Shown piece after piece: positions 949-19,788 of a stretch of 32,000 nt of DNA. The first letter of the stretch is position 1. Every line of letters begins with the position of its first letter. Under the pieces are notes generated by a model. That model was not told the DNA's origin and made no database searches. It saw nothing but the letters and a program-made list of their open reading frames with translations. Source of the DNA: Candidatus Velamenicoccus archaeovorus. Its GTDB lineage: Bacteria > Omnitrophota > Gorgyraeia > Velamenicoccales > Velamenicoccaceae. The DNA lies in NCBI RefSeq assembly GCF_004102945.1, contig NZ_CP019384.1:750001-782000 (forward strand). Direction: 5' to 3'. The translations under genes were made by a program, and so were the position numbers.

Positions 949-950
949 AC

Positions 951-1026
951 GGCCGGATGCCGGCCCTGGCTTAAACACTTGTAAATTTCCCCTCCGGCCG
1001 GCTGAACCGGCCTTCGGGAAATTTAC
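951..1026 (+). other. Two GC-rich stem-loops directly after the dehydratase stop codon (possible T-tract-less terminator or protein/RNA binding element)
   Basis: Hairpin 1 is GGCCGG-ATG-CCGGCC (951-965). Hairpin 2 (981-1026) has outer arms GTAAATTTCCC/GGGAAATTTAC enclosing an inner GGCCGG-CTGAA-CCGGCC hairpin. No U-tract follows either one. Confidence 0.35.
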
Positions 1027-1093
1027 AGCGTAAACTGCGGAGTTCATTTTGCTGGGAACAAATACCCATCATAGACAAAATGAAGGAGTTCAT

Positions 1094-2140: not shown

Positions 2141-2191
2141 AGCGATTGCACAGATTGCCGAAAGCAGATTACACAGAAAGCGCAAGGTGTT

Positions 2192-2692
2192 ATGATTCTC
2201 AGGGGCTTTTCCTATAAGATTGGCGACGATATCAATACGGACTATATCATTTCCGGTCGATATAAGTTTTCCATCAGCGATATGAAAGAACTTGCCAAGC
2301 ATATCATGGAAGACATCGATCCGGCTTTTTATTCGCGTCTGAAGCCCGGCGCTTCTTTCCTGGTGGCCGGGAAAAATTTCGGGATGGGTTCGTCGCGCGA
2401 GCAGGCGCCTCTCGTCATCAAAGAGGCCGGGATCGTCGGCGTCGTGGCCAAAAGTTTTGCGCGGATCTTTTATCGCAATGCCATCAATATCGGCCTGCCT
2501 TTGATTGAAGCCGATACGACCGGGATCCGCGAGAATGACGAGTTGCAGATCGACCTGGAGAATGGCGAGTTGCGCAACCTGACCCAGAAGACGAAGATGA
2601 AAATCAATCCCCTTCCGCCTGTCATGCGTAAACTTCTCTCAGACGGCGGCCTCGTCGAGCATTTCAAAAAATACGGCGGCATCAAGCTGTAG
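2192..2692 (+). CDS. Aconitase-superfamily dehydratase small subunit (LeuD/HacB type 2, about 165 aa)
   Basis: The 166-aa protein has GDDINTDYIISGRY, GKNFGMGSSREQAP and FARIFYRNAINIGLP, which are typical swivel-domain motifs of short LeuD-type subunits. RBS is AAGGTG. Confidence 0.85.
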   Translation: MILRGFSYKIGDDINTDYIISGRYKFSISDMKELAKHIMEDIDPAFYSRLKPGASFLVAGKNFGMGSSREQAPLVIKEAGIVGVVAKSFARIFYRNAINIGLPLIEADTTGIRENDELQIDLENGELRNLTQKTKMKINPLPPVMRKLLSDGGLVEHFKKYGGIKL

Positions 2693-2709
2693 CCTTCAGA
2701 CGGAGCATC

Positions 2710-3798
2710 ATGGCGAAATACACCATCACTCTGATCCCCGGAGACGGGATCGGTCCGGAAGTGAGCCTTGCGGCCAAGCGTTGCATCGAAGCCACCGGCG
2801 TCGACATTCGCTGGGAAGAATTCATTGCCGGAGAAGCGGCCATCAAGAAATTCGGAACGCCGTTGCCGGATGACGTCATAGCCTCCATCAGGAAAAACAA
2901 GGTCGCCATCAAAGGGCCGATCGTCACGCCTGTAGGGACCGGTTTTCGCTCGGTCAACGTCCAGCTGCGTCACGCCCTTGATCTTTACATTTGTCTGCGG
3001 CCGGCGCGCAGCATGGAGGGTGTATCCGCGGCTTTCAAGAATATAGATCTTGTTATTGTCCGCGAGAACAGCGAAGATCTTTATATGGGGATCGAGTTTC
3101 AGGAAGGGTCGCCTGATGCCGCCAAGGTGATTGAGACCATTAACGCTTTGAGCCCGAAGAAGATCCGCGAGGATTCAGGCATTTCCATCAAACCCATCTC
3201 AAAATTCGCGACGCGCCGTATCGTTAAATTCGCCTTCGAATATGCCTTGAAAAACGGCCGCAAGAAAGTCACGGCTGTCCATAAAGCGAACATCATGAAG
3301 CATACGGACGGCCTCTTTCTGGCCGTGGCCAGAGAAGTGGCCCAGGAGTATGCCGGCAAAGTCGAATTTGGCGATGCGATCGTCGATAATCTCAGCATGC
3401 AGCTGGTGACTAAGCCTCAGAATTTTGATGTCCTGGTGTTGCCGAATCTCTACGGAGACATTATTTCTGATTTGTGTGCCGGGCTCGTCGGCGGGCTGGG
3501 CGTGGCTCCCGGCGCCAATCTGGGCGACGGGATCGCTTTGTTTGAACCCGTCCACGGGTCGGCCCCGAAATACACCGGCATGAATAAAGTCAATCCGACC
3601 GCCACGATCCTTTCGGGCGTCATGATGTTGCGTTATCTGGGTGAGATGAAGGCCGCCGATAAGCTGGAGGGCGCCGTCAAAGAAGTCATCAGAGAAGGCA
3701 GGTATGTTACCTATGATCTCAAAAAAGACAGGAATGACCCGACGGCCGCTTCGACGAGTGGTATGGCCGATGCTATCATCAAAAAAATGAAAGGGTAG
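2710..3798 (+). CDS. Isocitrate/isopropylmalate dehydrogenase family protein (NAD-IDH or homoisocitrate-DH-like)
   Basis: Motifs are IPGDGIGPEV, GFRSVNVQLRHALDLYICLRP (the S-x-N substrate motif of IDH-type enzymes), NLYGDIISDL and EPVHGSAP. The protein is 362 aa. Substrate cannot be fixed from sequence by eye. Confidence 0.75.
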   Translation: MAKYTITLIPGDGIGPEVSLAAKRCIEATGVDIRWEEFIAGEAAIKKFGTPLPDDVIASIRKNKVAIKGPIVTPVGTGFRSVNVQLRHALDLYICLRPARSMEGVSAAFKNIDLVIVRENSEDLYMGIEFQEGSPDAAKVIETINALSPKKIREDSGISIKPISKFATRRIVKFAFEYALKNGRKKVTAVHKANIMKHTDGLFLAVAREVAQEYAGKVEFGDAIVDNLSMQLVTKPQNFDVLVLPNLYGDIISDLCAGLVGGLGVAPGANLGDGIALFEPVHGSAPKYTGMNKVNPTATILSGVMMLRYLGEMKAADKLEGAVKEVIREGRYVTYDLKKDRNDPTAASTSGMADAIIKKMKG

Positions 3799-4733: not shown

Positions 4734-4788
4734 CGTAGAGCGCGGCATGCCTCAAGGCCGCGCCGGTTTGTTATATCCGCGAGCCATC

Positions 4789-6039
4789 ATGACGTACGAT
4801 CTTTCCATCATAGGCGCCGGGTGGGCTGGTTTTAACGCCGCGATCGCGGCAGCGCGTCTAGGCAAGACCGTCTGCCTGATTGAAGAGAATGAGATCGGCG
4901 GCACCTGTCTTAACCGCGGCTGCATTCCTACCAAGGTCTTCGTTGCAGAATCCAGAAAGAATTCGAACCTTTCCGAGATCCAAAGGAGAAAGACAGAAGT
5001 TATAGCCCGGCTTTCCCAGGGGATGAATTATCTTTTGAAATCGCATAATATCACATGGGTCCAGGGCCGCGGGATTTTGCTGGGACCCGGAGCGGTTTCT
5101 GTCGGCGGCAAAGGAGAGGTCAAGTCAAAATTTGTCCTTTTGGCCACGGGGTCGGAGCCAAAGGAGATTTCCAGAAACCCGTTTGATCGCCAAAGGGTTG
5201 TTTCCAGCGACGATGTCTTGAATTGGGAGGTTGTCCCCGGGACGCTTTTGATTGTTGGCGGAGGTTTCATCGGTTGCGAATTTGCATCGATATTCCGCCG
5301 CTTAGGGGCGCAGGTGACGGTCGTTGAGATGCTCGACAGGCTCTTGCCGAATATGGACGAGGAGCTGGGTAAAAAACTGGCACAGGCTTTTCAGAAACAA
5401 GGCATAAAAGTCATGCTCAAGACGGGCCTGGAACAGGCGGATCCGGATTCATATGAAAAAGTCCTGGTCGCTGTCGGCCGCAAGAGCCGCTTGGAAGACG
5501 TCTGTGCCTCATCCTGTTCTTTGCGCGCGGAAAAAGGAGCAATCGATACAGACCGCACGCTGGCGACGAGCATGAAGCATGTTTTTGCCGCCGGCGATTG
5601 CGTGGGAGGATATCTTTTGGCCCATGTGGCTGCCTATGAGGGAGAGTTGGCTGTCTCCAATATGTTTCAAAAGGCACAGAACAGGGATTACGGCGCCGTT
5701 CCTTCCAGCGTCTTTACAACACCTGAGGTGTCTTCTGTGGGTTTGACTGAGCAGGAAGCCAAGGCTTTCGGCGCGGATTATGAGACGAAGACCATTTTTT
5801 ATCTTTCTTTGGGGATGGCCCATGTCCTTGGTGATACGCAGGGGTTTGTGAAGGTTGTTGTCGACAGGAGAAAAAAACTCATCCTTGGGGCCAGCATCGT
5901 GGGTCTTGAGGCTGCAGAACTGGTAAATTTGTTTTCTGTCATCATCAAGAACAAAATAGGCATCCCCGACCTGAAAAGGACTGTTTTTGCCCACCCCAGT
6001 TTAAGCGAGATTGTCTCTGAACTTGCCAGAGCGTTTTGA
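4789..6039 (+). CDS. lpd: Dihydrolipoyl dehydrogenase-like flavoprotein disulfide reductase
   Basis: The likely start is the ATG at 4789 (MTYDLSIIGAGWAG, FAD-binding GxGxxG). The track start at 4747 adds 14 non-conserved residues. Evidence includes the redox disulfide GGTCLNRGCIPTK, a second Rossmann motif VGGGFIGCEFA and C-terminal HPSLSE. Confidence 0.75.
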   Translation: MTYDLSIIGAGWAGFNAAIAAARLGKTVCLIEENEIGGTCLNRGCIPTKVFVAESRKNSNLSEIQRRKTEVIARLSQGMNYLLKSHNITWVQGRGILLGPGAVSVGGKGEVKSKFVLLATGSEPKEISRNPFDRQRVVSSDDVLNWEVVPGTLLIVGGGFIGCEFASIFRRLGAQVTVVEMLDRLLPNMDEELGKKLAQAFQKQGIKVMLKTGLEQADPDSYEKVLVAVGRKSRLEDVCASSCSLRAEKGAIDTDRTLATSMKHVFAAGDCVGGYLLAHVAAYEGELAVSNMFQKAQNRDYGAVPSSVFTTPEVSSVGLTEQEAKAFGADYETKTIFYLSLGMAHVLGDTQGFVKVVVDRRKKLILGASIVGLEAAELVNLFSVIIKNKIGIPDLKRTVFAHPSLSEIVSELARAF

Positions 6040-6042
6040 CCC

Positions 6043-6717
6043 ATGGCTTACGCAGATCTCCCGCTGAAAGTACTGAATCTCGGCTTGATTCCATATGCCG
6101 AGGCTTGCAATTTGCAGAAAAAGCTAGTCGAGGAGGTGGCCTGCGGGGTGTCTGTAAACACGCTTCTTGTTTGTCAGCATCCTGCGGTGATCACTTATGG
6201 CCGGCGCTGCGGCCATGACCACATCCTTGTTTCGGAAAATGAGATCAGGCGTAGGGGTATCGAGCTATGCCAGACGGATCGCGGCGGCGACGTCACTTAT
6301 CATGGTCCTGGCCAAGCGGTATTTTATCCTATTTTCGATCTTAAAAAGATAGGCCAGGATCTGCATTATTATATGAGGATGCTTGAAGAGGCCGCCATCG
6401 CGCCTTTAAAAGAGCATTTTGGGTTGAACGCTTATCGCAGGGAGGGAATGACCGGCGTCTGGATTGGTCCTTACAAAGTTGGTTTTATCGGCATTGCCGT
6501 CAAGAAATGGGTTTCCTATCACGGCATGTCGTTGAACGTAGGCGTAGACCCGGAATTCTTTTCTTTGATCAAACCCTGCGGGTTGGATGTGAAAGTGGCT
6601 TCAATCAATGATTTTTTCAGTGACGAGGTTCAATTGGAAACGATTTGTGATATGATAGTTGAACAAATGGCCCATGTTTTTCAATTTGAAGTGACAGGAG
6701 GCAGCAGGCAATGGTAA
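6043..6717 (+). CDS. lipB: Lipoyl(octanoyl)transferase LipB
   Basis: The RGGDVTYHGPGQ motif and the downstream K(K)WVSYHG motif are typical of LipB. The gene starts 3 nt after the lpd stop. Confidence 0.9.
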   Translation: MAYADLPLKVLNLGLIPYAEACNLQKKLVEEVACGVSVNTLLVCQHPAVITYGRRCGHDHILVSENEIRRRGIELCQTDRGGDVTYHGPGQAVFYPIFDLKKIGQDLHYYMRMLEEAAIAPLKEHFGLNAYRREGMTGVWIGPYKVGFIGIAVKKWVSYHGMSLNVGVDPEFFSLIKPCGLDVKVASINDFFSDEVQLETICDMIVEQMAHVFQFEVTGGSRQW

Positions 6718-6983
6718 AGGTATATCTGCCGGAATTAGGAGAAGGTGTCGCCAAGGCCACCGTTTCTTACTGGTATGTGGAAGAAGGCGCGACGGTCACG
6801 GAAGGCAGCGAGTTGGTCGAGGTGTCTACGGACAAAGCGACCTTTAATGTTCCTGCGCCCTGCTCAGGGAACGTGATCGAGATCGTGGCCCACGAAGGCG
6901 ATGTGGTGGAGATTGGTGCCGTACTTGCCGTGATCGAAGAAGATACAGTTTCGGAGTCCGAAGAAGAAGCCGAAGGCGCATAG
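6711..6983 (+). CDS. Free-standing lipoyl-attachment domain protein (E2-type lipoyl domain with acidic tail)
   Basis: The 90-aa protein has LPELGEGVAKATVSYWYV...VEVSTDKATFNVPAP, which matches the E2 lipoyl-domain consensus with the lipoyl-Lys in the DKA motif. It has no catalytic E2 core. It overlaps the lipB stop by 7 nt (ATGGTAA). Confidence 0.75.
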   Translation: MVKVYLPELGEGVAKATVSYWYVEEGATVTEGSELVEVSTDKATFNVPAPCSGNVIEIVAHEGDVVEIGAVLAVIEEDTVSESEEEAEGA

Positions 6984-7010
6984 CGTTTTTCCGGATGGGC
7001 AATTGATCCA

Positions 7011-7050
7011 GGCCCTGCCTGAAGGAAATCAGGCAGGGCCTTGTTTTTTT
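7011..7050 (+). terminator. Rho-independent terminator of the metabolic operon
   Basis: A perfect 12-bp stem GGCCCTGCCTGA / TCAGGCAGGGCC (7011-7022 / 7029-7040) with a 6-nt loop, followed by TTGTTTTTTT. Confidence 0.85.
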
Positions 7051-7097: not shown

Positions 7098-7136
7098 TTG
7101 ACTAAGCCGTTTATTTGCGGTATTTTAAACTATAAT
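7098..7136 (+). promoter_or_regulatory. Candidate sigma70-type promoter for the HTH/FAS-like cluster
   Basis: TTGACT (7098-7103), a 17-nt spacer, then TATTTT (7121-7126). A perfect TATAAT lies at 7131-7136. The site is 40-75 nt upstream of the ATG at 7176. Confidence 0.35.
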
Positions 7137-7175
7137 CCATTGTGTTTGGTTGTGTTTGTCAGTTTGTGGAGCGAT

Positions 7176-7406
7176 ATGGTTTACCATCTGGAGATCCTGG
7201 AAGCCAAAGAAGTTGCGGATTACCTGCATTTGCATATCTTTACGGTGCATAAGCTTGCGCGGCAAGGTATCCTTCCGGCATTCAAGATTGGTCATGGATG
7301 GAGATTTAGAAAAGCAGCTCTCGATAAGTGGATACGCCTGAGAGAAGGAAGAGAAAGGCAGAGGCGACCAGTCAAGGCCCCTTTGAAAAAAGGGGTTTTT
7401 TATTGA
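7176..7406 (+). CDS. Small excisionase/MerR-superfamily helix-turn-helix DNA-binding protein
   Basis: 76 aa from the ATG at 7176 (RBS GTGGAG). LEAKEVADYLHLHIFTVHKLARQGILPAFKIGHGWRFRKAALDKWI matches the excisionase-family HTH (HTH_17-type) pattern. The track ORF from 7041 runs through the upstream terminator and is not credible. Confidence 0.7.
   Translation: MVYHLEILEAKEVADYLHLHIFTVHKLARQGILPAFKIGHGWRFRKAALDKWIRLREGRERQRRPVKAPLKKGVFY
7378..7401 (+). terminator. Terminator-like hairpin overlapping the 3' end of the HTH gene
   Basis: CCCCTTT-GAAA-AAAGGGG followed by TTTTTT (7396-7401). The stop codon TGA at 7404-7406 lies just after the T-tract. The next gene starts at 7464. Confidence 0.45.
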
Positions 7407-7463
7407 GGCCACAATTTGGTCTGCGGCCAGAGGGCTAAGTCAGGCGTAAGTCCAGGGGTTTTC

Positions 7464-8705
7464 ATGAAACACACAGAGATCGTCATCACAGGCATCGGCG
7501 TTGTTGCCTCTAACGGTATAGGAAGGGAAGCTTTTTGGGGCGCCCTTCGGAAAGGAGTGAGCGGCATCAAGCCGGTGAGTCTTTTTGATACGGGTTCTAT
7601 AAAATCCAAGCAGGCCGGCGAGATCAAGGATTTTGATGCCAAGCTTTATCTGGGAGATAAAGGGCTTCGTCTTCTTGATCGTTCGACGAAACTTGCGAAT
7701 GTGGCGGCCAAGCTTGCTTTGGACGACGCGCATTTTACTGTCACAGAGGAGAACACAGACGAAACGGGGGTTGTCCTGGGGACGACATTGGGGAGCGTCT
7801 GGAGCATCAGCGAGTTTGACAAGACGGCCCTTGTTGAGGGGCCGAGATATGTCAACCCGGCTCTTTTTCCCAATACCGTCATCAATTCGCCAGCCAGCCA
7901 GATATCCATCCGTTTCGGTATCAAGGGGTTTAATACGACGATTGCCACAGGTTTTACGTCGAGCATGGACGCTTTAAAATACGCCTGTGATTTTATCCGC
8001 CTGGGCCGCGCCAAGGCGGTTCTGGTGGGCGGCGTGGAAGAGCTTTGCCTGCAGACATATCTCGGTTTTTATAAGCTCCAGTTCCTTTCAGGGTCAAAAG
8101 ACGATGACCAGGAATTGAATTGTCCTTTTGACTGCAGGCGTAATGGCATTGTTTTCGGGGAAGGGGCAGCAATGCTGCTTATTGAAGATGCGGAGGCTGC
8201 CCGAGCCCGCGGCGTGCGTATTTATGCCAGGATTTCTTCCCTGGGCTATGAATTCGTTCCTTACCGCATCAACAAATATCATCGGCTTGGCACAGGCATC
8301 CGTAAGGCTATGAAAGAGGCCCTGGGGGCCGCCGATCTGGATGTCGAAGACGTCGATTACATCAGCGCTAACGCGAATTCCACGCCTGAAGCGGACAGGA
8401 TCGAGGCGGTGGCGATCCGGGAGGTTTTCGGCTCAACGGCCCAAAAGATACCTGTAACTGCAATCAAGTCGATGGTGGGAGAGACGTTCAGCGCTTCCGG
8501 CGCCATGCAGCTGGCGGCGGCATCAGGGAGTATCAAAGAGGGCTTTATCCCTCCGACACTGAATCTCAGGGAAAAGGACCCACAGTGCACCCTCAATTGC
8601 AAGGACGGCATATCGCAGAAAGCGGACATCCGTCATGTCCTTATCAGCTGTTTTGGGCCCAGCGGAGTGAATACGGCGGTTGTCCTGTCAAAATATGAAA
8701 AATAA
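7464..8705 (+). CDS. Beta-ketoacyl synthase-like protein lacking the catalytic Cys-His-His triad (chain-length-factor-like KS partner)
   Basis: The protein has the thiolase-fold KS layout (ITGIGVVASNGIG..., GGVEE, FGEGAAMLLIE). The FabF nucleophile motif IATACTSG reads IATGFTSS here. AHGTSTP reads ANANSTP, and GHLLGAAG reads GETFSASG. The likely start is the ATG at 7464 (MKHTEIVITG). Confidence 0.8.
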   Translation: MKHTEIVITGIGVVASNGIGREAFWGALRKGVSGIKPVSLFDTGSIKSKQAGEIKDFDAKLYLGDKGLRLLDRSTKLANVAAKLALDDAHFTVTEENTDETGVVLGTTLGSVWSISEFDKTALVEGPRYVNPALFPNTVINSPASQISIRFGIKGFNTTIATGFTSSMDALKYACDFIRLGRAKAVLVGGVEELCLQTYLGFYKLQFLSGSKDDDQELNCPFDCRRNGIVFGEGAAMLLIEDAEAARARGVRIYARISSLGYEFVPYRINKYHRLGTGIRKAMKEALGAADLDVEDVDYISANANSTPEADRIEAVAIREVFGSTAQKIPVTAIKSMVGETFSASGAMQLAAASGSIKEGFIPPTLNLREKDPQCTLNCKDGISQKADIRHVLISCFGPSGVNTAVVLSKYEK

Positions 8706-9456
8706 CGAGTTGCTTAAGGACCGGATCGGCATTGTTTCGGGCGGCACGAGGGGGATCGGCCGCGCGATCGTCAAGGAGCTTGTCGCCGCAGGCGCAAAAA
8801 TCGCTTTTACCTACGTCAAAAGCGATGCCGAAGCAAAAAAACTTCTCCAGGAAATCGCGGCTGCAGGTTCCGAGGCCCTGAGTTTCAAGGGTGATGTGCG
8901 CGATTACGACACGTGCCGGGATTTCGTGGAGCAGGTCAAGGCCTATTTCGGCGGTTTGGATTTTCTTGTCAACAATGCCGGTATCACGCGCGACAAGGCT
9001 TTTATGACGATGGAAAAAGAAGATTGGAAGGACGTCATCGATGTCAACCTCACCGGCTGTTTCAATATGGCGCGTTCGTGCATTGTGACTTTTCTCAAGC
9101 AGAAGGAAGGCAATATCGTCAACATTTCGTCCATCAGCGGGATTTCAGGCATTGCGCGGCAGGTGAACTATTCGGCATCCAAAGCGGGTATCATCGGCCT
9201 GACGCGTGCCCTGGCCCAGGAAGTCGCGCCCTACAATATCCGCGTCAATTGCATAGCACCGGGCTTTATTGAAACTGACATGTTAGGCATCCTCAAGGAG
9301 GAACTCAAGGATAAATTCCGCCGGGCCGTCCCTTTGGGCCGGTTCGGCAATCCACAGGATATAGCCAAGACCGTTTTATTTCTCTTAAGCGAGCAGTCCA
9401 ATTACATCACGGGCCAAGTCATCAAGGTTGATGGCGGCCTGCATACGAGCAATTGA
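8695..9456 (+). CDS. fabG: 3-oxoacyl-ACP reductase (SDR, FabG-like ketoreductase)
   Basis: Motifs are GGTRGIGRAI (cofactor binding), NNAG and the catalytic S...YSASKAG (YxxxK). The likely ATG at 8695 overlaps the upstream stop by 11 nt. Confidence 0.85.
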   Translation: MKNNELLKDRIGIVSGGTRGIGRAIVKELVAAGAKIAFTYVKSDAEAKKLLQEIAAAGSEALSFKGDVRDYDTCRDFVEQVKAYFGGLDFLVNNAGITRDKAFMTMEKEDWKDVIDVNLTGCFNMARSCIVTFLKQKEGNIVNISSISGISGIARQVNYSASKAGIIGLTRALAQEVAPYNIRVNCIAPGFIETDMLGILKEELKDKFRRAVPLGRFGNPQDIAKTVLFLLSEQSNYITGQVIKVDGGLHTSN

Positions 9457-9484
9457 CAACACGGTGAATAGGAGGGACTGACAA

Positions 9485-9730
9485 ATGGCGCCTAGCATAA
9501 AGGATGAAATCCTTGAGATCGTTGCCACGGTTATCGAAAAAGAAGCTGGAGACATTTCTCTTGACGCTCATCTTGTGCAGGAAGTGGGGGCAGATTCCAT
9601 GATGGCGCTTGAGATCCTGGCGGCCTTGGAAAAAAAGTATCATATTGTTGTCCCCGAAGAAAGACTCAAAGAGATGACAACTGTTAACAAAATTATTCAG
9701 ATGGTTGAGACGGCCAGGAAAAGAGGGTGA
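9485..9730 (+). CDS. Acyl carrier protein
   Basis: The 81-aa protein carries GADSMMALEI, the DSL-type phosphopantetheine attachment motif. A GGAGGG RBS lies 8 nt upstream. Confidence 0.85.
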   Translation: MAPSIKDEILEIVATVIEKEAGDISLDAHLVQEVGADSMMALEILAALEKKYHIVVPEERLKEMTTVNKIIQMVETARKRG

Positions 9731-9763
9731 TGGCTAATCGATCTCTATGAGAAAGGATAGAAT

Positions 9764-10195
9764 ATGGTTTTGGAAATAGAAGATATTAAAAAACTTATTC
9801 CCCAACGGTTCCCGTTTTTAATGATTGACAGGGTCCTGGAGGCTTCGCCTGAAAAGGTTGTTGCCATCAAGAACGTCACAGCCAGCGAGCAATTTTTTAA
9901 AGGCCACTTTCCCGGACAGCCTATTATGCCGGGTGCTCTTGTCATCGAAGCCATGGCGCAAACAGGCATTATTCTCTACAAACAAAAATTTGCTAATGAC
10001 AAGGTGCTCTTTCTCGTTTCCGTCAAAAGCCGCTTTTTAAAGCCCGTTATCCCTGGTGACCAAATGATGATTACGGTTGAACCCATAAAGATGATGTCTA
10101 GAATGGGAATTTTTAACGCCATCATCACGATTGAAGATCGCAAGATCGCCGAGGCAGAGATTGCCTTTGGTTCTCAGGACGCCAAATCTATATGA
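9764..10195 (+). CDS. fabZ: 3-hydroxyacyl-ACP dehydratase (FabZ-like hot-dog fold)
   Basis: RFPFLMIDRV...FFKGHFPGQPIMPGALVIEAMAQ is the FabZ active-site His and Glu-region signature. Confidence 0.85.
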   Translation: MVLEIEDIKKLIPQRFPFLMIDRVLEASPEKVVAIKNVTASEQFFKGHFPGQPIMPGALVIEAMAQTGIILYKQKFANDKVLFLVSVKSRFLKPVIPGDQMMITVEPIKMMSRMGIFNAIITIEDRKIAEAEIAFGSQDAKSI

Positions 10196-11430
10196 AACCG
10201 TCGGTTAGATCTAAGGGTGAAAAGCGTCGTGTTGTCGTGACAGGGCTCGGTGTTGTATCTTCTTTAGGCATCGGAGTTCCGGAGTTTTGGAAGAATCTCA
10301 TCGCTGGTAAGTCGGGCATCTCTGATATCGAGTCTTTCGATACCTCGGATTATCCTGTCCATAAAGGCGGAGAAGTTAAAAATTTCCACCCCGAAGATTT
10401 TATCGACAAGCGAAAAATCAGACATTTGGGGCGTGCCTCCCAGATGGCCATCGCCGCGGCAAAATTAGCCACGAAAGATGCCTTGCTTAAAAAAAATAAT
10501 ATTATTCAAAGTGGCATTTTCGTAGGAACAACAATGGGGGAAATTCAAGAGCTTGAGGAGATGAATTTAGGGTGGCTAAAAACTGGACATTTGTCTATCG
10601 ATAAATCTTCAATTTTTTTATTTCCCACAAATGTTATCGCCGTCAACGCAGCGTTAGAATTAAAATGTCAAAAATATAATTTTATGATGCCGACTGCATG
10701 TGCGTCCGGAAATTATTCGATAGGTTTTGCTTTTGATTTAGTGAAAAAGGGCGAGCTGAATGTTGCTTTGGCAGGAGGGTCGGATTCATTTTCACGAATT
10801 GCTTTTACAGGATTTAATCGACTTATGGCTATGGCTCCTGAGAAGTGTCAGCCATTTGACAAAAATCGTAAAGGCATGATGTTAGGAGAGGGGGCAAGTA
10901 TATTAATTTTAGAATCATTAGAGTATGCAGAAAAAAGAGGCGCTAAAATTTATGCAGAAATTTTAGGTTATGGTTTAAGTTGCGATGCGCATCATATGAC
11001 TCAACCGGCAGAAGAAGGTATCGTTAGTTGTATGAAAAAAGCTCTTAAAGAATCAAACATTTCAGCAGGAGAGGTCGATTATATTAGTACGCATGGGACA
11101 GGCACATTGCAAAATGATAAAGTCGAATGTGCTGCCCTTAAAAAAGTTTTTGGTAAGAGATTAAAAAGTATTCCGTGTAGTTCTATTAAGTCCATGCTTG
11201 GTCATACGATGGGTGCGGCTTCTGCCATGGAGGCGGTTGTTTGTTGTCTAGTGATTAAGGATGGTATTTTCCCCCCGACAATTAATTATGAAACACCGGA
11301 TGAAGATTGTGATATTAATTGTGTGCCTAATAAATCAGAAGGAAGAAAGATTAATATTGCTTTGAATAATTCTTATGCGTTCGGCGGAAATAATTGTTGT
11401 GTAATTTTTAAAAGATTTATATCTTTCTGA
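10192..11430 (+). CDS. Beta-ketoacyl-ACP synthase (FabF/KAS II-like, catalytically complete)
   Basis: The triad is intact: PTACASG (Cys), YISTHGTGT (His) and SMLGHTMGAAS (His). The start overlaps the fabZ-like stop (ATGA). GC content falls within this ORF. Confidence 0.85.
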   Translation: MKPSVRSKGEKRRVVVTGLGVVSSLGIGVPEFWKNLIAGKSGISDIESFDTSDYPVHKGGEVKNFHPEDFIDKRKIRHLGRASQMAIAAAKLATKDALLKKNNIIQSGIFVGTTMGEIQELEEMNLGWLKTGHLSIDKSSIFLFPTNVIAVNAALELKCQKYNFMMPTACASGNYSIGFAFDLVKKGELNVALAGGSDSFSRIAFTGFNRLMAMAPEKCQPFDKNRKGMMLGEGASILILESLEYAEKRGAKIYAEILGYGLSCDAHHMTQPAEEGIVSCMKKALKESNISAGEVDYISTHGTGTLQNDKVECAALKKVFGKRLKSIPCSSIKSMLGHTMGAASAMEAVVCCLVIKDGIFPPTINYETPDEDCDINCVPNKSEGRKINIALNNSYAFGGNNCCVIFKRFISF

Positions 11431-11444
11431 GAAGAATATAGACT

Positions 11445-12542
11445 ATGTATACAAAAAATATCTTAATGACTGGTTCGACTGGTTTTTTGGGATCCTTCAT
11501 TTTAAAAAATATCTTGGATGAGACTTGTCATAATGTTTTTTTGTTAATTCGAGCAAAAAATCAGGATGAGGCTTTGATACGGCTAAAAAAATTAATATTT
11601 CGCATTTATAAAGAAGATCGGTTTACGCGTTATAATAAGCGGCTTGAAGTTTTCTGCGGCGATCAGACTCAATCTTGTCTTGGCTTGAGTAGAAAAAAAT
11701 ATTTTAGCCTTTTTAAAAAAATTAATGAAATATATCATTGTGCTGCCTTGACTGAATTTAATGAGCCTTGGGAGAAAGTTTATAAAGTCAACGTTTGTGG
11801 AACAGAAAATATTTTTAAATTTGCTTATTCATGTAATAAATTTACAAAATTAAATTATATCAGTACTGCTTTTGTCGTTGGTAATTCTAGGATACACTTC
11901 ACTGAAGTTGATTTGAGCACGAATCAAAATTTTAATAACACATATGAAAAAAGTAAATATGAGGCAGAGTTACTAGCAAAAGATTTTATAAAAAAGGGGC
12001 TAAAAATAGCAATTTATAGACCAAGCATTGTTGTTGGTGATTATTTAAGTGGAGAGACAACCAATTTCAGAATGTTTTATAAGCCATTTAGATCTCTTTC
12101 GTTAGGTTTATTTGCCGAGCTTCCTTTAAATAAGGACGGCTATTTAAATTTAATACCTGTAGATTATGCCGCCAGGGCCATTTTTACCTTGGCTGAAAAC
12201 GAAGATTCAGCAGAAGTCTATCACATAGTAAATCCAAGACATTTCTCTTTGCCTTATCTTATGGATTTTGCTGCTGATTTTTTTGGCTACAAAAATCCAA
12301 AATTTATTTCTCTGGGAGAATTTGATTCAAACCACCTGACCGCTATTCAAAAGAAGATATTAAAAATTTATTTACCTTATTTCACCTATGGGGCATTATT
12401 TTTTTCTGAGAAAACCCAGAAAATTTTGGCAAGACATCATTTTTTCTATCCAGATACATCCAAGGGTTTCCTTGAACGTATCTTTAATTTTTGCATTAAA
12501 AGTGGGTATATTAACTCTAAAAAGCTTAATAAGGTTTTTTAA
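11445..12542 (+). CDS. Stand-alone thioester reductase / fatty acyl reductase-type extended SDR (NAD_binding_4 type)
   Basis: It has an N-terminal TGSTGFLGSF (TGxxGxxG) motif and the catalytic YEKSK (YxxxK). Its length and layout match terminal reductase domains of NRPS/PKS and acyl-ACP/CoA reductases. Confidence 0.7.
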   Translation: MYTKNILMTGSTGFLGSFILKNILDETCHNVFLLIRAKNQDEALIRLKKLIFRIYKEDRFTRYNKRLEVFCGDQTQSCLGLSRKKYFSLFKKINEIYHCAALTEFNEPWEKVYKVNVCGTENIFKFAYSCNKFTKLNYISTAFVVGNSRIHFTEVDLSTNQNFNNTYEKSKYEAELLAKDFIKKGLKIAIYRPSIVVGDYLSGETTNFRMFYKPFRSLSLGLFAELPLNKDGYLNLIPVDYAARAIFTLAENEDSAEVYHIVNPRHFSLPYLMDFAADFFGYKNPKFISLGEFDSNHLTAIQKKILKIYLPYFTYGALFFSEKTQKILARHHFFYPDTSKGFLERIFNFCIKSGYINSKKLNKVF

Positions 12543-14724
12543 ATGAATACTTTTTCTTTGTCAGGTTTGATATTAGGTTTAACTTGTTTGTTTCTAGTTA
12601 TAATTTCTGAAATTAAGGGTAAATCTTTATTGCATCGAGTTTGGTCTTTATTCAATATTGCCGTTGGAAGTTGGGGGGCAGGATCATTTTTTATAGGACG
12701 TATTAAAAATCCAGATGTAGCATTGTTAACATGGAGATTCACTGAAATAAGCGTAGCATTCATTGCTGTTTTTTTTTCTTCATACAACATATCTAATTTG
12801 TAATTTAAAAAATAGGTCTTTATTATATTTTGCCTATTTCCAGGGGTTCATTTTTTCACTGCTTTCGATAACTTCTAATACATTTTTTTCTGGGACTTAT
12901 TTAATTTTTGGACAGTTTTATTATGCCTTACCAGGAGTATTGTTTTATGTTTTTTTCTTTATATGGATGGCTTTGGTCGGATATAGTCAGTACTGTTTGT
13001 TTATTTCTGTAATCCAGAGTAGGGGGAAGCTAAGAAATCAAATTCTTTATTTTGCCATTGGAACAATCTTAGGATTTTCGGGTGGCTTAACAAATTTTTT
13101 CCCTCATTTTAGAATTAATTTTTATCCTTTTGGTAATTTTACCATTCCTATTTATTGTCTTATTGTAACGTATGCCATTTTGAGATACCGTTTGTTAGAT
13201 ATTAGCATTGCCGTAACTCGAACTAGTATTTTTGTAGCTGTTTATTCTTTGATTCTTGGTCTGCCTTTACTCGTTATTTATTATTTACAGAATCAGTTGG
13301 TAGGTTTGTTAGGCGTTTCTTGGTGGATTGTTCCTTTTTTATGTTCTACCGCTCTTGCTACTTTGGGGCCTTTCTTATACATTTATTTTGATAGAAAGGC
13401 AGAGGAAAGATTATTAAAAGAACAAAAAAAATATCAAAGCATTTTGAAAGGTGCTTCTGCCGGTATGATCCGGATTAGAAATTTAGATGTGCTTTTAAAA
13501 CTTATAGTCTACGTTGTCACAAAGATTGTTAAGATACAGCACGCTTCTGTATATCTTTTTGATCTCGAGAATCAACAATTTTCAGTAAGGGCTTCCCGAT
13601 CATCAAAAGAATCTAATATAAAATTCTTTAATATTGATTTACAGTCTGTTTTAATAAAAAAGCTAATGTCTGAAAAAGAGCCTCTCGTTACGGAAGAAAT
13701 TGCTCTGCGGTTAAGAGATGATCCAAATAATTATTATTTAATTAAATTAATGGAAGAACTATTTTCTTTAAGTGCTGCCTTGGTTATTCCTAGCTTTGTA
13801 GAAGATCGACTCATAGGTATTCTGGTTTTAGGAGAAAAACGTTCCAGGGAGCTTTACTCGCAAGATGATTTCGCTGTTTTTTCTGTTTTGGCCAACCAGG
13901 CAGCTTTGGCCATTGAGAACGCCCAATTTTATGAAGAAATTAGAAAGACTCAGGAATCACTCTTTCAGGCAGAAAAAATGGCAACGATCGGTACTATGGC
14001 CGATGGCTTATCTCATCAGATCAACAACAGGTTCCACGCTCTTTCTTTGATTGCCGGCGATGCCATGGACGTTCTAAAAACTTATGATTGTTCTCAGCAC
14101 AACGAAGAGACAAGGCAGATATTCAATGATCTCAAGAATTCGCTGGAGCGTATTCAGGCTAATGTTTTGCAGGGAGGAGAAGTAGTAAGAGGTTTGCTTA
14201 AATATTCTCGGCCAGGAGAATGTGGTTTCGAAAGGATTTCCTTCAAGGAAGTTCTGGATGGCGCAGTGGAGATGGTGAGCTATAAGATCAAGCTCAGAGA
14301 AATCGATTTCGTTAAAGACATGCCATCACATCTTCCTTGTCTCAATGCTAATATTGTTCAATTACAGGAAGTTTTCTTCAATTTGATAGATAATGCCTAC
14401 GATGCCATTAAAGAACGTCAAATGATTTTAAACGAGCATCATTATCGGGGAAGAATCGAAATATCGGTCATGACTGATCAAACTTTTTTTCATATTAATG
14501 TGCAGGACAATGGGATAGGAATTAAGCCTGAAGACAAACAGAAAGTGTTTACGCCTTTCTTCACCACAAAAGCAACAGCAAAAAAGGGGACAGGGTTAGG
14601 TCTCTATGTTATTCAAAAAATCATCTCTGCTCATGACGGACAGATTAGAATGAATTCTGTTTATCGGTCCGGGACTTGTTTTACGATCAGCCTTCCTATT
14701 AAGCCTAGGCTCGCAGCAGCCTGA
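12543..14724 (+). pseudogene. Sensor histidine kinase (multi-TM N-terminal sensor, GAF, HisKA, HATPase_c) interrupted by a 1-nt frameshift in a T9 tract
   Basis: ORF 12543-12803 and ORF 12763-14724 are consecutive parts of one protein. The join ...ISVAFIAVFF|FLHTTYLICNLKNRSLLYF parallels ...VSFISVFLLHAILLLIGRRNYLIL in the paralog at 14705-16315. The frames differ by +1 across TTTTTTTTT (12769-12777), and removing one T gives about 726 aa. Downstream motifs include a GAF-like region, the H-box GLSHQINN, NLIDNAYDA, DNGIGI and GTGLGL. Confidence 0.7.
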
Positions 14725-16315
14725 TTACCACTGTTGTTCCTGTATTTAATTCACTTTCAACTTCAATTTCTCCCTTATTATTTTTTATGATTTGATGACT
14801 GATGGCAAGACCTAATCCAGTGCCTTCGTCTTTTGTGGTGAAAAAAGGATTAAATATGTTTTTCATGTCTTTTTTTGGAATTCCGCAGCCCTCATCTTTT
14901 AGGATAATCTCGATTTGCTTAGTATTTTTTACTTTTGTTGCGATGTGTATTTTTCCGCCACGGGGCATTGAATCTAAGGCATTCAGAATAACATTAAAAA
15001 AAACTTGTTTAATCTGTGCGGCGTCAACAGCTACCATCAAATTATGGTCCGTACATTCTTCAATCAGTGTTATCTTCCGTTTTAAAAAATCATTACTCAT
15101 TAATTCAAGTGTTTCTCTAACTATGCCGCAAATATTTACAGATTTTAAAATAGGAGGCGTCGGTTTTGAAAAGTCGAGTAACTTGTGGACAATGTTGTTT
15201 ATTCGATCGACCTCGGCTGGAATAATTTTTGAAAATTTAGTTACGAAGTCTTCTTCTTTAAATTTTTTAGGTAAAAATTCAGAAAATGTCTTTAAAGTTG
15301 TAAGAGGATTTTTTATTTCATGAGCTAAACCTAGCGCTAATGCACTGGCAGCCTTGAGTCGTTCTGAGCGTTCAAGCTCTTGTTTAAGTAGTTCATTTTC
15401 TTTTGCGATTTCTTCTGGGCTTTTTCCTAGGAAAATTTTATCGACAAAAGTTTGGATTTTTTGCCGGAGTGGGTTAAATAAAAGTGCCATTAAGAAAGCT
15501 GAGAAAAGACTTAGCAAGAAAGATTGGTATCCGATGATTCCTCTAAATAGCGACTCAATGATAATTATTAATAATAAATATATTGCGCTTAAAATAGCAA
15601 TCAGAATTGAATAGAGCAATCCCTTTTTATATATGATTTCAATGCCGAACATTTTATGTCGGAATACTGCATATGTGAAAATCAAACAGTAGGCAACTAT
15701 TCCTAAGTTTGCAAATTGAAAAAAGGGAGGATTGTACATATAGAAAAAGTTGATTGCTCCACTTGAGCAACCTAAGATAGTTAATATGATAAGCAATCTA
15801 ATATCTTTTCTTTTGTTTTGATCTTGCCAATAAAAAGTGATAAGACAAAAATGGGCATAGGTTACGATTATTGTCCACAAAGCATACCATAGAAAATAGT
15901 ATTTTCCCGAAAAAGGAATTAAAACACCCAGATGGTTTTCAAAATAGTCACCTAATATTAGATTAGTAGTTAATAATACGATACTGCATATAATGGCCTG
16001 AGTATAAGATAATATTAGAATCAAATAATTTCGTCTACCGATTAATAATAAAATTGCATGCAAGAGAAAAACCGAAATGAAACTTACTCCGCAATCCCCA
16101 ATTTTCCAACTTAATAGGGCAATTTTCTCATATGAAAAAAAATTAAGAAAAGAACTTATTGTTGATCCGACAGCCCATATAAATACGGAAAAATTGAAAA
16201 ATAACCACATTTTGTGAAAATTGACATTATTATATTTTAATAGAATGAGAATTAAGAATAATTCTGCTAAAGTTAGAACAAGACTTGAAATGAAAAACCA
16301 GTTTATTGAAAACAT
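14705..16315 (-). CDS. Sensor histidine kinase with multi-TM (7TM-type) N-terminal domain
   Basis: The first roughly 290 aa are hydrophobic with multiple TM segments. These are followed by a coiled coil, the H-box GLAHEIKNPLTT, then NVILNALDS, DEGCGI and GTGLGL. The 3' end overlaps the convergent kinase by 20 nt. Confidence 0.8.
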   Translation of the reverse strand: MFSINWFFISSLVLTLAELFLILILLKYNNVNFHKMWLFFNFSVFIWAVGSTISSFLNFFSYEKIALLSWKIGDCGVSFISVFLLHAILLLIGRRNYLILILSYTQAIICSIVLLTTNLILGDYFENHLGVLIPFSGKYYFLWYALWTIIVTYAHFCLITFYWQDQNKRKDIRLLIILTILGCSSGAINFFYMYNPPFFQFANLGIVAYCLIFTYAVFRHKMFGIEIIYKKGLLYSILIAILSAIYLLLIIIIESLFRGIIGYQSFLLSLFSAFLMALLFNPLRQKIQTFVDKIFLGKSPEEIAKENELLKQELERSERLKAASALALGLAHEIKNPLTTLKTFSEFLPKKFKEEDFVTKFSKIIPAEVDRINNIVHKLLDFSKPTPPILKSVNICGIVRETLELMSNDFLKRKITLIEECTDHNLMVAVDAAQIKQVFFNVILNALDSMPRGGKIHIATKVKNTKQIEIILKDEGCGIPKKDMKNIFNPFFTTKDEGTGLGLAISHQIIKNNKGEIEVESELNTGTTVVIRLLRA

Positions 16316-16319
16316 GACA

Positions 16320-16682
16320 TTAGCAGAGATTGTTTACTTTTCTGAGAATTTCTTTTGAAGCAAAGGGTTTTGGGATGTAGTCATTGACTCCGATACATAT
16401 AGCTTCTTGAGCAATTTCAGGACTGGCGTAGCCGGTGACTATAATGATTTTGATATCTGGACAGGCGCGTTTAATCTCTTGAGTAATCTCGAGACCATTT
16501 TGTTTTGGCATTTTAATATCCAGAAGGACTAGTTTGACATCTTGCTCGCATTCAAGTTTTTCAAGACATTCCTTACCGTTGCAGCTAAAGATGAGGTCAT
16601 AATCATTTTCCAGAATAAGTTTTAAGGATTCTCTGATGCCTTCCTCATCATCACATATTAAAATTCTTTTTTTAGCTGTCAT
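16320..16682 (-). CDS. Single-domain response regulator (CheY-like receiver only)
   Basis: The 120-aa protein has ILICDDEEG, LVLLDIKMP (phospho-acceptor Asp) and a conserved Lys region (IPKPF). It has no output domain. It lies 4 nt upstream of the kinase start. Confidence 0.85.
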   Translation of the reverse strand: MTAKKRILICDDEEGIRESLKLILENDYDLIFSCNGKECLEKLECEQDVKLVLLDIKMPKQNGLEITQEIKRACPDIKIIIVTGYASPEIAQEAICIGVNDYIPKPFASKEILRKVNNLC

Positions 16683-16718: not shown

Positions 16719-17276
16719 TTATAATGCGACCGGGCTAACGACAGTGATCAGCTTTGCAGGTTTTGAGCCGGTGTTTTTGACAGAGTGAGGGAGGGATGCA
16801 TCGAAGTAAGTGCTGCCATTTTTTCTAAGCTGATAGGTTTTGTCCCCGATCTTTAAATCCGTTTCCCCTTCGATGCAAAAGATGAATATATCCGTTCCGG
16901 GAAGGTTTTCTTCTGTCGGCGTGCCTTTTTGTGGTTCGATGATCAAAAGCTGGGGAAGCATTTTCTTCTTCCCTGTCTGTTTGGCTAGAATGAAGGCCGA
17001 TACCTTTTCGTCATAATTAAAAACTTCCGCATCCTTAATCGTCTTTTCATCAAAGGCGACGACTTTTTCTTCGGCATTCTCCAGCCCCTTATAAAGTTCT
17101 CCCAAGTTTACACTTAATGCGTTGCAGATTTTAAGGTGCGTATTGAGATTGCCGGTTGTCACGCCGTTCTCAATGCGGCTCAATGTGGCCTTGGCAACTC
17201 CGGAAAGTTCAGCGAGTTTATCCAGCGTGAGATCTTTTTGTTTCCTCAGTGCTTTAAGTTTTTCACCTAATTTCAT
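16719..17276 (-). CDS. XRE-family HTH transcriptional regulator with C-terminal cupin sensor domain
   Basis: The N-terminus LGEKLKALRKQKDLTLDKLAELSGVAKATLSRIENG is an HTH_3 domain. The C-terminus IFCIEGETDLKIGDKTYQLRKNGSTYFDASLPHSVKNTG is a cupin_2-like barrel. A GGAG RBS lies 8 nt upstream. Confidence 0.85.
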   Translation of the reverse strand: MKLGEKLKALRKQKDLTLDKLAELSGVAKATLSRIENGVTTGNLNTHLKICNALSVNLGELYKGLENAEEKVVAFDEKTIKDAEVFNYDEKVSAFILAKQTGKKKMLPQLLIIEPQKGTPTEENLPGTDIFIFCIEGETDLKIGDKTYQLRKNGSTYFDASLPHSVKNTGSKPAKLITVVSPVAL

Positions 17277-17791: not shown

Positions 17792-17982
17792 CGTTATTGC
17801 AACAAAATTAGTCTACCCTTAAATCAGCAAACATGATCGTATTTGAGTTCCAAGAAAAACTCGCCGAACAATTCCTCAGAAAAGGCATGCCTCGTCATTG
17901 TGGGTTATGTAAAGAGAATGCGGCTTGCAAGCGCCGCAATCCTGAATCCTATTGTTTATGGTTGAAACGCAGGAGAAGATCT

Positions 17983-19719: not shown

Positions 19720-19788
19720 TCCAGTTTGCCAGAATTCCCTGTCTGCCGTGAGCGGCGGGCCAGGGCTGAGGGCAGGATAGAGGTATTT

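Follow-up and report, generated by a model that had tools for sequence, protein, structure and literature searches.

The stretch of DNA analysed here, referred to as the window, covers 32 kb of the genome of Candidatus Velamenicoccus archaeovorus, a member of the phylum Omnitrophota in the Planctomycetes–Verrucomicrobia–Chlamydiae (PVC) group that is described in PMC13153191 as a predatory ultramicrobial epibiont; all positions below are window positions. On its forward strand lies a compact array of seven co-directional genes, encoding in order a helix-turn-helix (HTH) regulator, a catalytically dead ketosynthase (KS1), a ketoreductase (KR), an acyl carrier protein (ACP), a dehydratase (DH), an active ketosynthase (KS2) and a stand-alone thioester reductase (TR). 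All junctions of the array were recovered by open reading frame (ORF) calling: KS1 runs to 8705 and overlaps by 11 nt with KR, whose ATG lies at 8695; the stop codon of DH and the start codon of KS2 share the ATGA at 10192–10195; 14 nt separate the end of KS2 (11430) from the start of TR (11445); and TR ends at 12542, with the next ORF abutting it from 12543. A preliminary description, made from the sequence alone, had reported these genes with the same overlaps and gaps, all of which are exact, and Pfam and NCBIfam searches confirm its gene order and domain identities. Its borders, 7098 and 12542, fare differently. The left one fits a terminator and a promoter-like site, but the right one cuts off an eighth co-directional gene (12543–14724, + strand), which encodes a histidine kinase with a seven-transmembrane (7TM; HisKA_7TM) domain and a GAF domain. 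This kinase, HK1, proves to be the most conserved partner of the cluster.

The left boundary of the unit is an intrinsic-terminator-like hairpin with a 13-bp stem followed by a T run (7010–7041, + strand), a strong terminator that closes an upstream operon for lipoamide dehydrogenase, LipB and a lipoyl protein. Promoter-like hexamers, TTGACT-17-TATTTT with a TATAAT close by, follow at 7098–7136 (+ strand), the promoter-like site proper spanning 7098–7126. They are a consensus match only, and a promoter scan of the whole window returned 28 sites against 26.9 expected from shuffled sequence, which is not above chance. The first gene (7176–7406, + strand) encodes, according to Pfam and NCBIfam, an HTH_17 (excisionase/MerR-like) DNA-binding protein, a cluster-linked regulator that also stands upstream of two of the three kinds of related module described below (classes a and c). 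A short hairpin with a T run at 7379–7395, at the 3′ end of this gene and directly before KS1, may separate the regulator from the biosynthetic genes as a partial terminator or an attenuator. An Rfam scan of the window gave no match.

The catalytic residues of the two ketosynthases were read from an alignment with 60 relatives. KS1 (7464–8705, + strand) has both the N and C ketoacyl-synt domains and carries Phe, Arg and Asn at the Cys/His/His positions, so that its earlier designation as dead was correct. The Cys position is occupied by Phe, Tyr, Met, Leu or Ser in 19 KS1 orthologues. KS2 (10192–11430, + strand) has the complete triad Cys170/His268/His301 and nearly passes or passes the NCBIfam FabF cutoff. 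The best sequence match of KS1 in the PDB is 9s5h_C (390 bits), followed at 245 bits by the best canonical FabF, and that of KS2 is 9s5h_B (488 bits), followed at 341 bits by Bacillus subtilis FabF. Entries 9s5h and 9s5i each hold two FabF homologues, 9s5i also an ACP, and from this chain composition we infer that they represent the amxFabF2/amxFabFmut heterodimer of anammox bacteria (bioRxiv 10.64898/2026.05.19.726425). In that system, the gene of the dead FabF homologue immediately precedes that of its active counterpart, and the two proteins form a heterodimer resembling a ketosynthase/chain-length factor (KS/CLF) pair, which decarboxylates malonyl-ACP, and is hence able to prime, and which prefers C6 and C8 probes (bioRxiv 10.64898/2026.05.19.726425). 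In a neighbour-joining tree, amxFabF2 falls inside the Omnitrophota KS2 clade, with 54% identity to the KS2 of the window. By sequence comparison, KS1, of the chain-length-factor type, is the orthologue of amxFabFmut and KS2 that of amxFabF2. The first catalytic His, equivalent to His303 of FabF, is replaced by Ser, Asp or Asn in the KS2 of related loci L005, L007, L014, L016, L045, L051 and L058, and a third ketosynthase in L003 has Lys there. This residue is lost in about 10 of about 40 KS2 orthologues overall, with the Cys and the second His retained.

The remaining biosynthetic proteins lead to the same relatives. KR (8695–9456, + strand) is a FabG-type 3-oxoacyl-ACP reductase (TIGR01830, 309 bits; cutoff 298) with a Y-x3-K motif and is therefore not a FabI-type enoyl reductase. 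The dedicated ACP (9485–9730, + strand) is a PP-binding protein with a DSM serine motif that scores below all AcpP cutoffs; its best solved relative is amxACP, a modest match of 45 bits. DH (9764–10195, + strand) is a FabZ-type dehydratase (NF000582, 146 bits; cutoff 113) with His48, Glu62 and Ile69, where His48 and Ile69 are numbered as in amxFabZ of Scalindua brodae. The best PDB matches of DH and ACP are chains A and D of 7QV0, the complex formed by amxFabZ and amxACP of S. brodae (JBC 2023, PMC10139942). In amxFabZ, Ile69 replaces the conserved tunnel Gly of canonical FabZ and clashes with chains longer than C6 (PMC10139942). Position 69 is Ile in 11 of 17 DHs from such cassettes and Gly in none (0/17). 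The locus thus holds a type II fatty acid synthase/polyketide synthase (FAS/PKS)-like set of KS/CLF type with its own ACP, KR and DH, as had been proposed, and the reported lack of an enoyl reductase, a malonyl transacylase and a thioesterase extends to every ORF of the 32 kb searched with Pfam and NCBIfam.

TR (11445–12542, + strand; 365 aa) matches NAD_binding_4 (PF07993) with 188 bits. Against TIGR01746, the other family model suggested for checking the reductase, it scores 158 bits, below the cutoff of 213. Among solved structures it is closest to carboxylic acid reductase and to the reductase domains of MxaA and AusA, not to sugar epimerases, and a GxxGxxG motif (T9, G10, G13), Arg36 and Tyr167/Lys171 are invariant across 23 TR homologues. 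The concern that the protein might turn out to be an epimerase-type short-chain dehydrogenase/reductase (SDR) can therefore be set aside; judged by these features, TR is a true member of the thioester-reductase family. With the terminal reductases or reductase domains of MxaA, carboxylic acid reductase, ElbD and AusA it shares the SDR-e fold of PF07993, the Tyr/Lys pair and the NADPH-type Arg. It differs in being free-standing rather than a C-terminal domain, in falling below the TIGR01746 cutoff and in having a 7TM kinase gene as its partner. By this likeness TR is predicted to act on a carrier-protein thioester, and it probably reduces acyl-ACP to an aldehyde or alcohol.

A search of GTDB species representatives with an alignment of TR homologues gave 80 loci, whose six-frame ORFs were scanned with the proteins of the window and of its relatives. 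TRs with at least about 35% identity come almost all from Omnitrophota and are preceded by three kinds of acyl-ACP supplier. In class a, HTH17-KS1-KR-ACP-DH-KS2 stands before TR, as in the window. In class b, plsX-fabH-fabD is followed by a DH-like gene without the catalytic His and by KS2, directly before TR. In class c, TR is preceded by HTH17-FadL-ACP-acyl-AMP ligase, and the set is, judging from its genes, a dissociated carboxylic acid reductase. Thus, the search for the same cassette in other genomes that had been suggested does recover it, but elsewhere other suppliers take its place. The TR sub-clades track the supplier class. Whatever the supplier, an HK1 gene lies downstream of TR and co-directional with it in 32 of the 34 loci that have at least 35% TR identity and enough sequence, within 4.5 kb in 27 of them, whereas none of the 29 loci with distant TRs has HK1 within that distance. 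Start and stop codons of TR and HK1 abut or overlap in the window and in relatives. The genes after HK1 usually encode a receiver and an HD-GYP protein; the opposite strand usually carries a second 7TM kinase (HK2), another receiver and a cupin-HTH regulator.

Further genes recur in these loci. Many sister loci have a gene for a phytoene-desaturase-like flavoenzyme, and class c loci have a B12 radical-SAM gene. A nitroreductase-family flavoprotein of about 200 aa is found in L018, L035, L051, L058, L029, L046, L028, L049, L050, L044, L090 and L096, usually in company with the phytoene-desaturase-like gene. A GMC oxidoreductase is additionally present in L017, and a methyltransferase in L035 and L046. 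In L014, L016, L030, L043 and L045, the gene between fabD and KS2 encodes a FabZ-like protein with Leu, Gln, Gly or Ser in place of the catalytic His. Judged from these residues, the class b protein is a dead hotdog protein paired with an amxFabF2-like ketosynthase rather than a housekeeping FabZ; a housekeeping reading of the class b loci was accordingly rejected, as their KS2 belongs to the amxFabF2-like clade and their DH is without the catalytic His. Loci L054–L086, from Solirubrobacterales and Thermoleophilia, have distant TRs (29–33% identity) consistently beside a FabH-like gene, and about 10 of them show a GAF-kinase-like match 6–8 kb downstream in a different arrangement.

Comparison within the species shows that part of the module is exchanged as a block. 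The window is 97.7% identical to the ENA contig L001 and 99.98% identical, over 8722–12947, to the Logan contig L002. Its flanks are 97–99% identical to contig L089, from a metagenome-assembled genome (MAG) that is itself labelled Candidatus Velamenicoccus archaeovorus (GCA_041890195.1). LipB, KS1, KR, ACP and DH are 99–100% identical between the window and L089, as is the cupin regulator beyond the kinases (100%). KS2 is strain-variable from about codon 80 onward, with 100% identity over the first 80 residues and 63% over the remainder. HK1 is a mosaic, with identities of 32% in the 7TM domain, 71% in the GAF domain and 99% in the kinase domain; HK2 has 41–63% and the receiver protein 64%. 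The resulting low-GC allelic block (about 10430–16610) comprises the part of KS2 beyond codon 80 together with TR, the sensor of HK1, HK2 and the greater part of the response regulator, interrupted by the HK1 kinase domain as an island of 99% identity. Its GC content is 30–40% and its third-position GC (GC3) 22–33%, against 45–55% and 45–65% in the flanks, and the low-GC break coincides with the recombination boundary relative to L089. As in the window at 10350–16650, TR and the 7TM kinases are much lower in GC and GC3 than adjacent genes in L015, L034, L003 and L005, and so is the phytoene-desaturase-like gene there (for example, GC3 of 17–26 against 40–65); this pattern in several unrelated Omnitrophota genomes suggests repeated horizontal exchange of the block from low-GC donors.

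The slot between KS2 and HK1 is occupied by different enzymes. In L089, whose KS1, KR, ACP and DH are 99–100% identical to those of the window, the place of TR is taken by a 380-aa protein that is not homologous to it and belongs to the acyl-ACP reductase (AAR)/PigE-N family (TIGR04058, 108 bits), which points to reductive release as the function of the slot. Across loci, such AAR-like proteins score 85–108 bits against a TIGR04058 cutoff of 450 and are distant relatives only of the cyanobacterial AAR and of the N-terminal region of PigE. This family is absent from the window. Among five more syntenic loci, L096 has a TR and a nitroreductase, L091 and L095 have an AAR-like reductase, and L090 has a WbuX-like amidotransferase, a long AAR-like protein and a nitroreductase; the fifth, L094, is considered below. 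Matches to the NCBIfam models for cispentacin (Amc) and flexirubin (FlxB) biosynthesis were all far below cutoff, and both candidates were discarded.

Mantel tests with exhaustive permutations were applied to the n = 7 alleles at this one syntenic site. 7TM identity goes with slot-enzyme class (r = 0.86, p = 0.005), averaging 60% within a class and 29% between classes. It follows neither the DH backbone (r = 0.05, p = 0.38) nor the kinase domain of the same protein (r = −0.06, p = 0.57), whereas the kinase domain does follow the DH backbone (r = 0.91, p = 0.003). Since the 7TM domain tracks the slot enzyme and the kinase tracks the backbone, the release or tailoring enzyme and the sensor domain move as one cassette, with breakpoints in KS2 and at the membrane/cytoplasm boundary of HK1.

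HK1 itself retains the phospho-acceptor His491 and the N and G boxes. In the window, a +1 frameshift splits its gene within a poly-T stretch at about 12769–12777, which has T9 here and T8 in L001 and L002; the protein is intact in L001 (726 aa), and the partial L002 copy is uninterrupted across the frameshift site. In the JGI contigs L092/L093, HK1 is interrupted by an IS3-family transposase pair (2654–3783 of these contigs). The two independent breaks within the TR allele could reflect sequencing error, phase variation or receptor loss. Among the membrane domains of 35 HK1 homologues, only W44, Y169, P195 and Y210 are conserved. A retinal-like polyenal bound to the 7TM domain through a Schiff base was considered and rejected, there being no conserved Lys in these 35 domains. 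A Foldseek comparison of the HK1 AlphaFold model (P0121, pLDDT 81, with the membrane part mostly above 90) with the PDB returned matches to the GAF domain only and none to the 7TM domain.

The reading that we prefer is that the locus is one strain-variable unit, in which a reductively released aldehyde or alcohol derived from acyl-ACP is paired with a cognate sensor kinase, HK1. We regard this combined reading as evenly poised, and its enzymology part as much more likely than its receptor part. In the mechanism envisaged, KS2/KS1 would prime itself by decarboxylation of malonyl-ACP, the ACP being loaded by the cell's own FabD, and would elongate on the dedicated ACP to a short or medium chain of about C6–C10. 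KR and DH would act in each cycle, and a trans-acting enoyl reductase may saturate the chain, or the chain may stay unsaturated. TR would then free the acyl-ACP as an aldehyde, or as an alcohol after a second reduction, and the hydrophobic product or a derivative of it would be the ligand of the HK1 membrane domain. HK1 would signal through neighbouring receivers, to HD-GYP in most relatives and to the set of HK2, response regulator and cupin-HTH regulator in the window. Different strains would thus hold different matched pairs of release or tailoring enzyme and sensor domain.

Several observations weigh against this proposal. Beyond the enzyme family, the product, the ligand and the response of the kinase are all deduced from sequence, and the predicted chain length relies on anammox enzymes with about 50% identity. 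The 7TM domain is encoded right beside the slot enzyme, so that co-transfer alone, without a ligand–receptor relation, could account for their co-variation. The slot of L094 contains a methyltransferase and a third ketosynthase but no reductase; release is therefore not always reductive. The breaks of HK1 in the window (frameshift) and in L092/L093 (insertion element) may mean that the system is decaying or dispensable. The HK1 membrane domain, in its modelled form, has no solved structural relative and no conserved Lys, and thus gives no indication of a binding site. The response regulator and HD-GYP pair that follows HK1 in most relatives is absent from the window, and the locus encodes no exporter or obvious secretion step.

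The gene organisation has parallels among known signalling systems. In agrBDCA and comQXPA, and in the lipid-signal pairs CqsA/CqsS and RpfF/RpfC-RpfG, the synthase gene is adjacent to that of a polytopic membrane histidine kinase. In the specificity groups of agr and comQXP, the synthase and the sensor domain are hypervariable and co-inherited, and the kinase domain and the flanks are conserved. The window resembles agr and comQXP in that its putative synthase adjoins a membrane kinase and in that the slot enzyme and the 7TM domain co-vary while the kinase domain and the flanks are conserved. It resembles Rpf in the HD-GYP output of its relatives, which is here a separate protein. No window protein is homologous to Agr, Com, Cqs or Rpf components, however, and by analogy the signal would be an aldehyde or alcohol derived from acyl-ACP. 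As for the diffusible signal factor (DSF)/Rpf system, the window encodes no crotonase and no HD-GYP protein, and hence no REC–HD-GYP pair such as RpfC/RpfG.

Among the alternatives, it is improbable, in our judgement, that the locus is a self-contained polyene cluster, a miniature of the aryl-polyene or ishigamide type, in which a conjugated polyene acyl-ACP is released as a polyenal or polyenol serving as pigment or antioxidant and the kinase is a mere neighbour. In its favour, highly reducing type II PKSs show the same gene logic, a KS/CLF pair with KR, DH and ACP but no enoyl reductase, and the ishigamide (Iga10–16) and aryl-polyene (Ape) clusters share with the window the KS/CLF logic, discrete KR, DH and ACP proteins and the lack of an enoyl reductase in cis. 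The ishigamide ketosynthase Iga11 (PDB 6kxd) is the fourth-best solved relative of KS2 (332 bits) and is reported as the closest structural homologue of amxFabF2 (bioRxiv 10.64898/2026.05.19.726425), and DH has precomputed ApeI/ApeP-like Pfam matches. The window nevertheless differs from both clusters in lacking a second DH or ACP, LolA-like and export genes and aryl starter enzymes, in its predicted reductive release and in a DH tunnel residue, Ile69, that predicts short chains. The preliminary description had recognised the absence of a second DH or ACP, a LolA-like gene and an exporter but had missed the closest relative, a 'ladderane'-type cluster. Its expectation of a polyene derived only from the missing enoyl reductase, which nowhere in the 32 kb is encoded; absence in cis is weak evidence, however, as the cluster must already borrow FabD. 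The anammox homologues, the amxFabF heterodimer and amxFabZ, are described as fatty-acid-type with a preference for C6–C8 (bioRxiv 10.64898/2026.05.19.726425; PMC10139942), and in sister loci TR is fed with imported fatty acids through FadL, acyl-AMP ligase and ACP, or by plsX-fabH-fabD. Sister loci also add a phytoene-desaturase-like flavoenzyme, which would be pointless on an already conjugated chain, and the linkage to the kinase is too strongly conserved for a chance neighbour. A polyene product is thus not favoured.

It is also unlikely that the genes form a specialised membrane-lipid pathway, supplying fatty alcohols or aldehydes for ether lipids in the manner of ElbD or for a ladderane-related lipid, with the 7TM kinases sensing the state of the membrane and adjusting the pathway. 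The strongest parallel here is anammox Cluster I (KustE3603–3608; antiSMASH label 'ladderane'), which has been proposed for ladderane synthesis, and ladderane lipids include ether-linked alcohols. The core of the window is homologous to it: in both, the dead ketosynthase is encoded upstream of the active one, the DH of the window has the amxFabZ hallmark Ile69, and its ACP is nearest to amxACP. The catalytic Cys of the dead ketosynthase, however, is Phe or Tyr here and Val or Thr in Cluster I, and the window adds a FabG-type KR, a thioester reductase, an HTH regulator and sensor kinases. Cluster I has phytoene-dehydrogenase-like and B12 radical-SAM genes, two enzymes thought to shape ladderanes, and although sister loci have one or the other, the window has neither: it contains no Amino_oxidase-family (phytoene-dehydrogenase-like) ORF, and its sole radical-SAM ORF (27541–28464) is without a B12 domain and 15 kb away. 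Cluster I has been called exclusive to ladderane producers (bioRxiv 10.64898/2026.05.19.726425; PMC10139942); its hosts are the ladderane-producing anammox bacteria, whereas the host of the window is a non-anammox member of Omnitrophota. ElbD homologues have been reported in 93 of 267 Omnitrophota MAGs (PMC11868695), and class b TRs lie directly behind plsX-fabH-fabD. ElbD, though, is a fusion of acyl-AMP ligase, ACP, reductase and AGPAT, whereas TR is a single-domain protein, and no AGPAT, alkyl-dihydroxyacetone-phosphate synthase or glycerol-linking enzyme is encoded near the cluster. The class b DH, without its catalytic His, is not simply a housekeeping fabZ product. The kinase output is an HD-GYP or receiver protein rather than a regulator of lipid genes, and a pathway for bulk lipids would not be expected to swap non-homologous enzymes and a sensor domain between strains of one species.

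Judged from the window and the related loci, a housekeeping or cofactor role is very unlikely. The cluster would then be the only elongation set of the organism, or a short FAS of mitochondrial type making octanoyl-ACP for the adjacent LipB (an octanoyl transferase) and its lipoyl protein. KR, DH and KS2 are at or near the NCBIfam cutoffs for FabG, FabZ and FabF. In five independent class a lineages (the window, L015, L034, L003 and L007), but in no class b or c locus, LipB is encoded within 7 kb of the KS/CLF cassette, and together with the C6–C8 preference of the anammox homologues, which fits octanoate, this makes a link to octanoyl-ACP conceivable. The LipB region of the window is at 4747–6983, and in the group of the window LipB is accompanied by a small lipoyl-domain protein and lipoamide dehydrogenase; it stands upstream of the cassette in one group and downstream in another. 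The strong terminator at 7010–7041, however, separates the LipB operon from the cluster, and the reductase, predicted to be co-transcribed with it, would destroy the thioester. Of the components of housekeeping type II FAS, the cluster has no FabH, no FabD (neither is encoded anywhere in the window) and no FabI/K/L/V; in place of a homodimeric FabF and AcpP it has an active ketosynthase with a dead partner and a divergent ACP, and its DH is of the amxFabZ type with Ile69. Part of KS2 is strain-variable and low in GC, and L058 carries a second DH-KS pair, beside DAGK and Lgt, on top of the cassette. The earlier statement that this is not a housekeeping fab operon is borne out by these features.

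A chimeric assembly joining two organisms would explain the drop in GC from 55% to 30% over 3 kb, which breaks inside KS2, but it can be dismissed. The independent assemblies L001 and L002 span the GC transition inside KS2, and these two and L092/L093 confirm the TR–HK1 junction; TR and the kinases are similarly low in GC in L015, L034, L003 and L005, and the break coincides with a recombination boundary relative to L089.

Downstream of HK1, the module continues on the reverse strand with HK2, the second 7TM histidine kinase (7TM-HisKA-HATPase; 14705–16315), which is convergent with HK1, a stand-alone response-regulator receiver protein (16320–16682) and an XRE-type HTH and cupin regulator (16719–17276), the last of which is conserved at the module end in many relatives. 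The region past the module (17833–26510) encodes an SpvB-like protein and a TcdB/RHS-repeat toxin-like protein of 2053 aa, and includes an ORF of 208 aa that has no Pfam match; this SpvB and TcdB/RHS neighbourhood is kept in all Velamenicoccus-like contigs examined. At the other end of the window (16–2692), a gene for a T2SSE type II/IV secretion ATPase (1049–2140) lies between the genes for the large and small subunits of an aconitase-family enzyme, and the spacing in this region differs from that in L001.

We found no paper describing a module of the form HTH-KS1-KR-ACP-DH-KS2-TR-HK1, and the Omnitrophota genome papers mention neither ladderane nor histidine kinase, one of them referring briefly to short-chain fatty acids. 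The cluster is a KS/CLF type II system that belongs to the Cluster I lineage and has a predicted reductive release; the conserved but strain-polymorphic enzyme–sensor module in which it is set appears to be previously undescribed. As a tentative extension, which we hold to be somewhat doubtful, the relatives may form a family of lipid-derived signalling systems in Omnitrophota, the archaea-killing ultramicrobacterium Ca. V. archaeovorus among them, with an exchangeable release enzyme, a co-inherited 7TM sensor and strain specificity groups arising by cassette exchange. A corollary would be that the KS/CLF core of Cluster I is an older, PVC-wide short-chain acyl-ACP synthase rather than an anammox invention.

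The locus holds more interest than a small orphan cluster of PKS-like genes would, though not on the grounds first put forward. The function of Cluster I is a long-standing open question in organisms for which there is no genetic system, and Cluster I proteins are the only characterised relatives of the ketosynthases described here. An orthologous KS/CLF-DH-ACP core in another phylum, in a simpler context that ends in a reductase, provides a comparative handle on what the core makes. antiSMASH 'ladderane' calls in Omnitrophota MAGs have been reported previously without interpretation, and the present locus is a warning that, beyond the anammox bacteria, this label stands for something else. 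An acyl-ACP reductase is tightly coupled to a 7TM kinase across the phylum, and enzyme and sensor domain are exchanged together between strains of one species; such a pattern is the genomic signature of a signal/receptor pair. Omnitrophota are uncultured, ultra-small and partly predatory, and to our knowledge no comparable system is known from them. The TR and AAR-like forms are two natural alleles with identical upstream genes, which makes the signal hypothesis testable.

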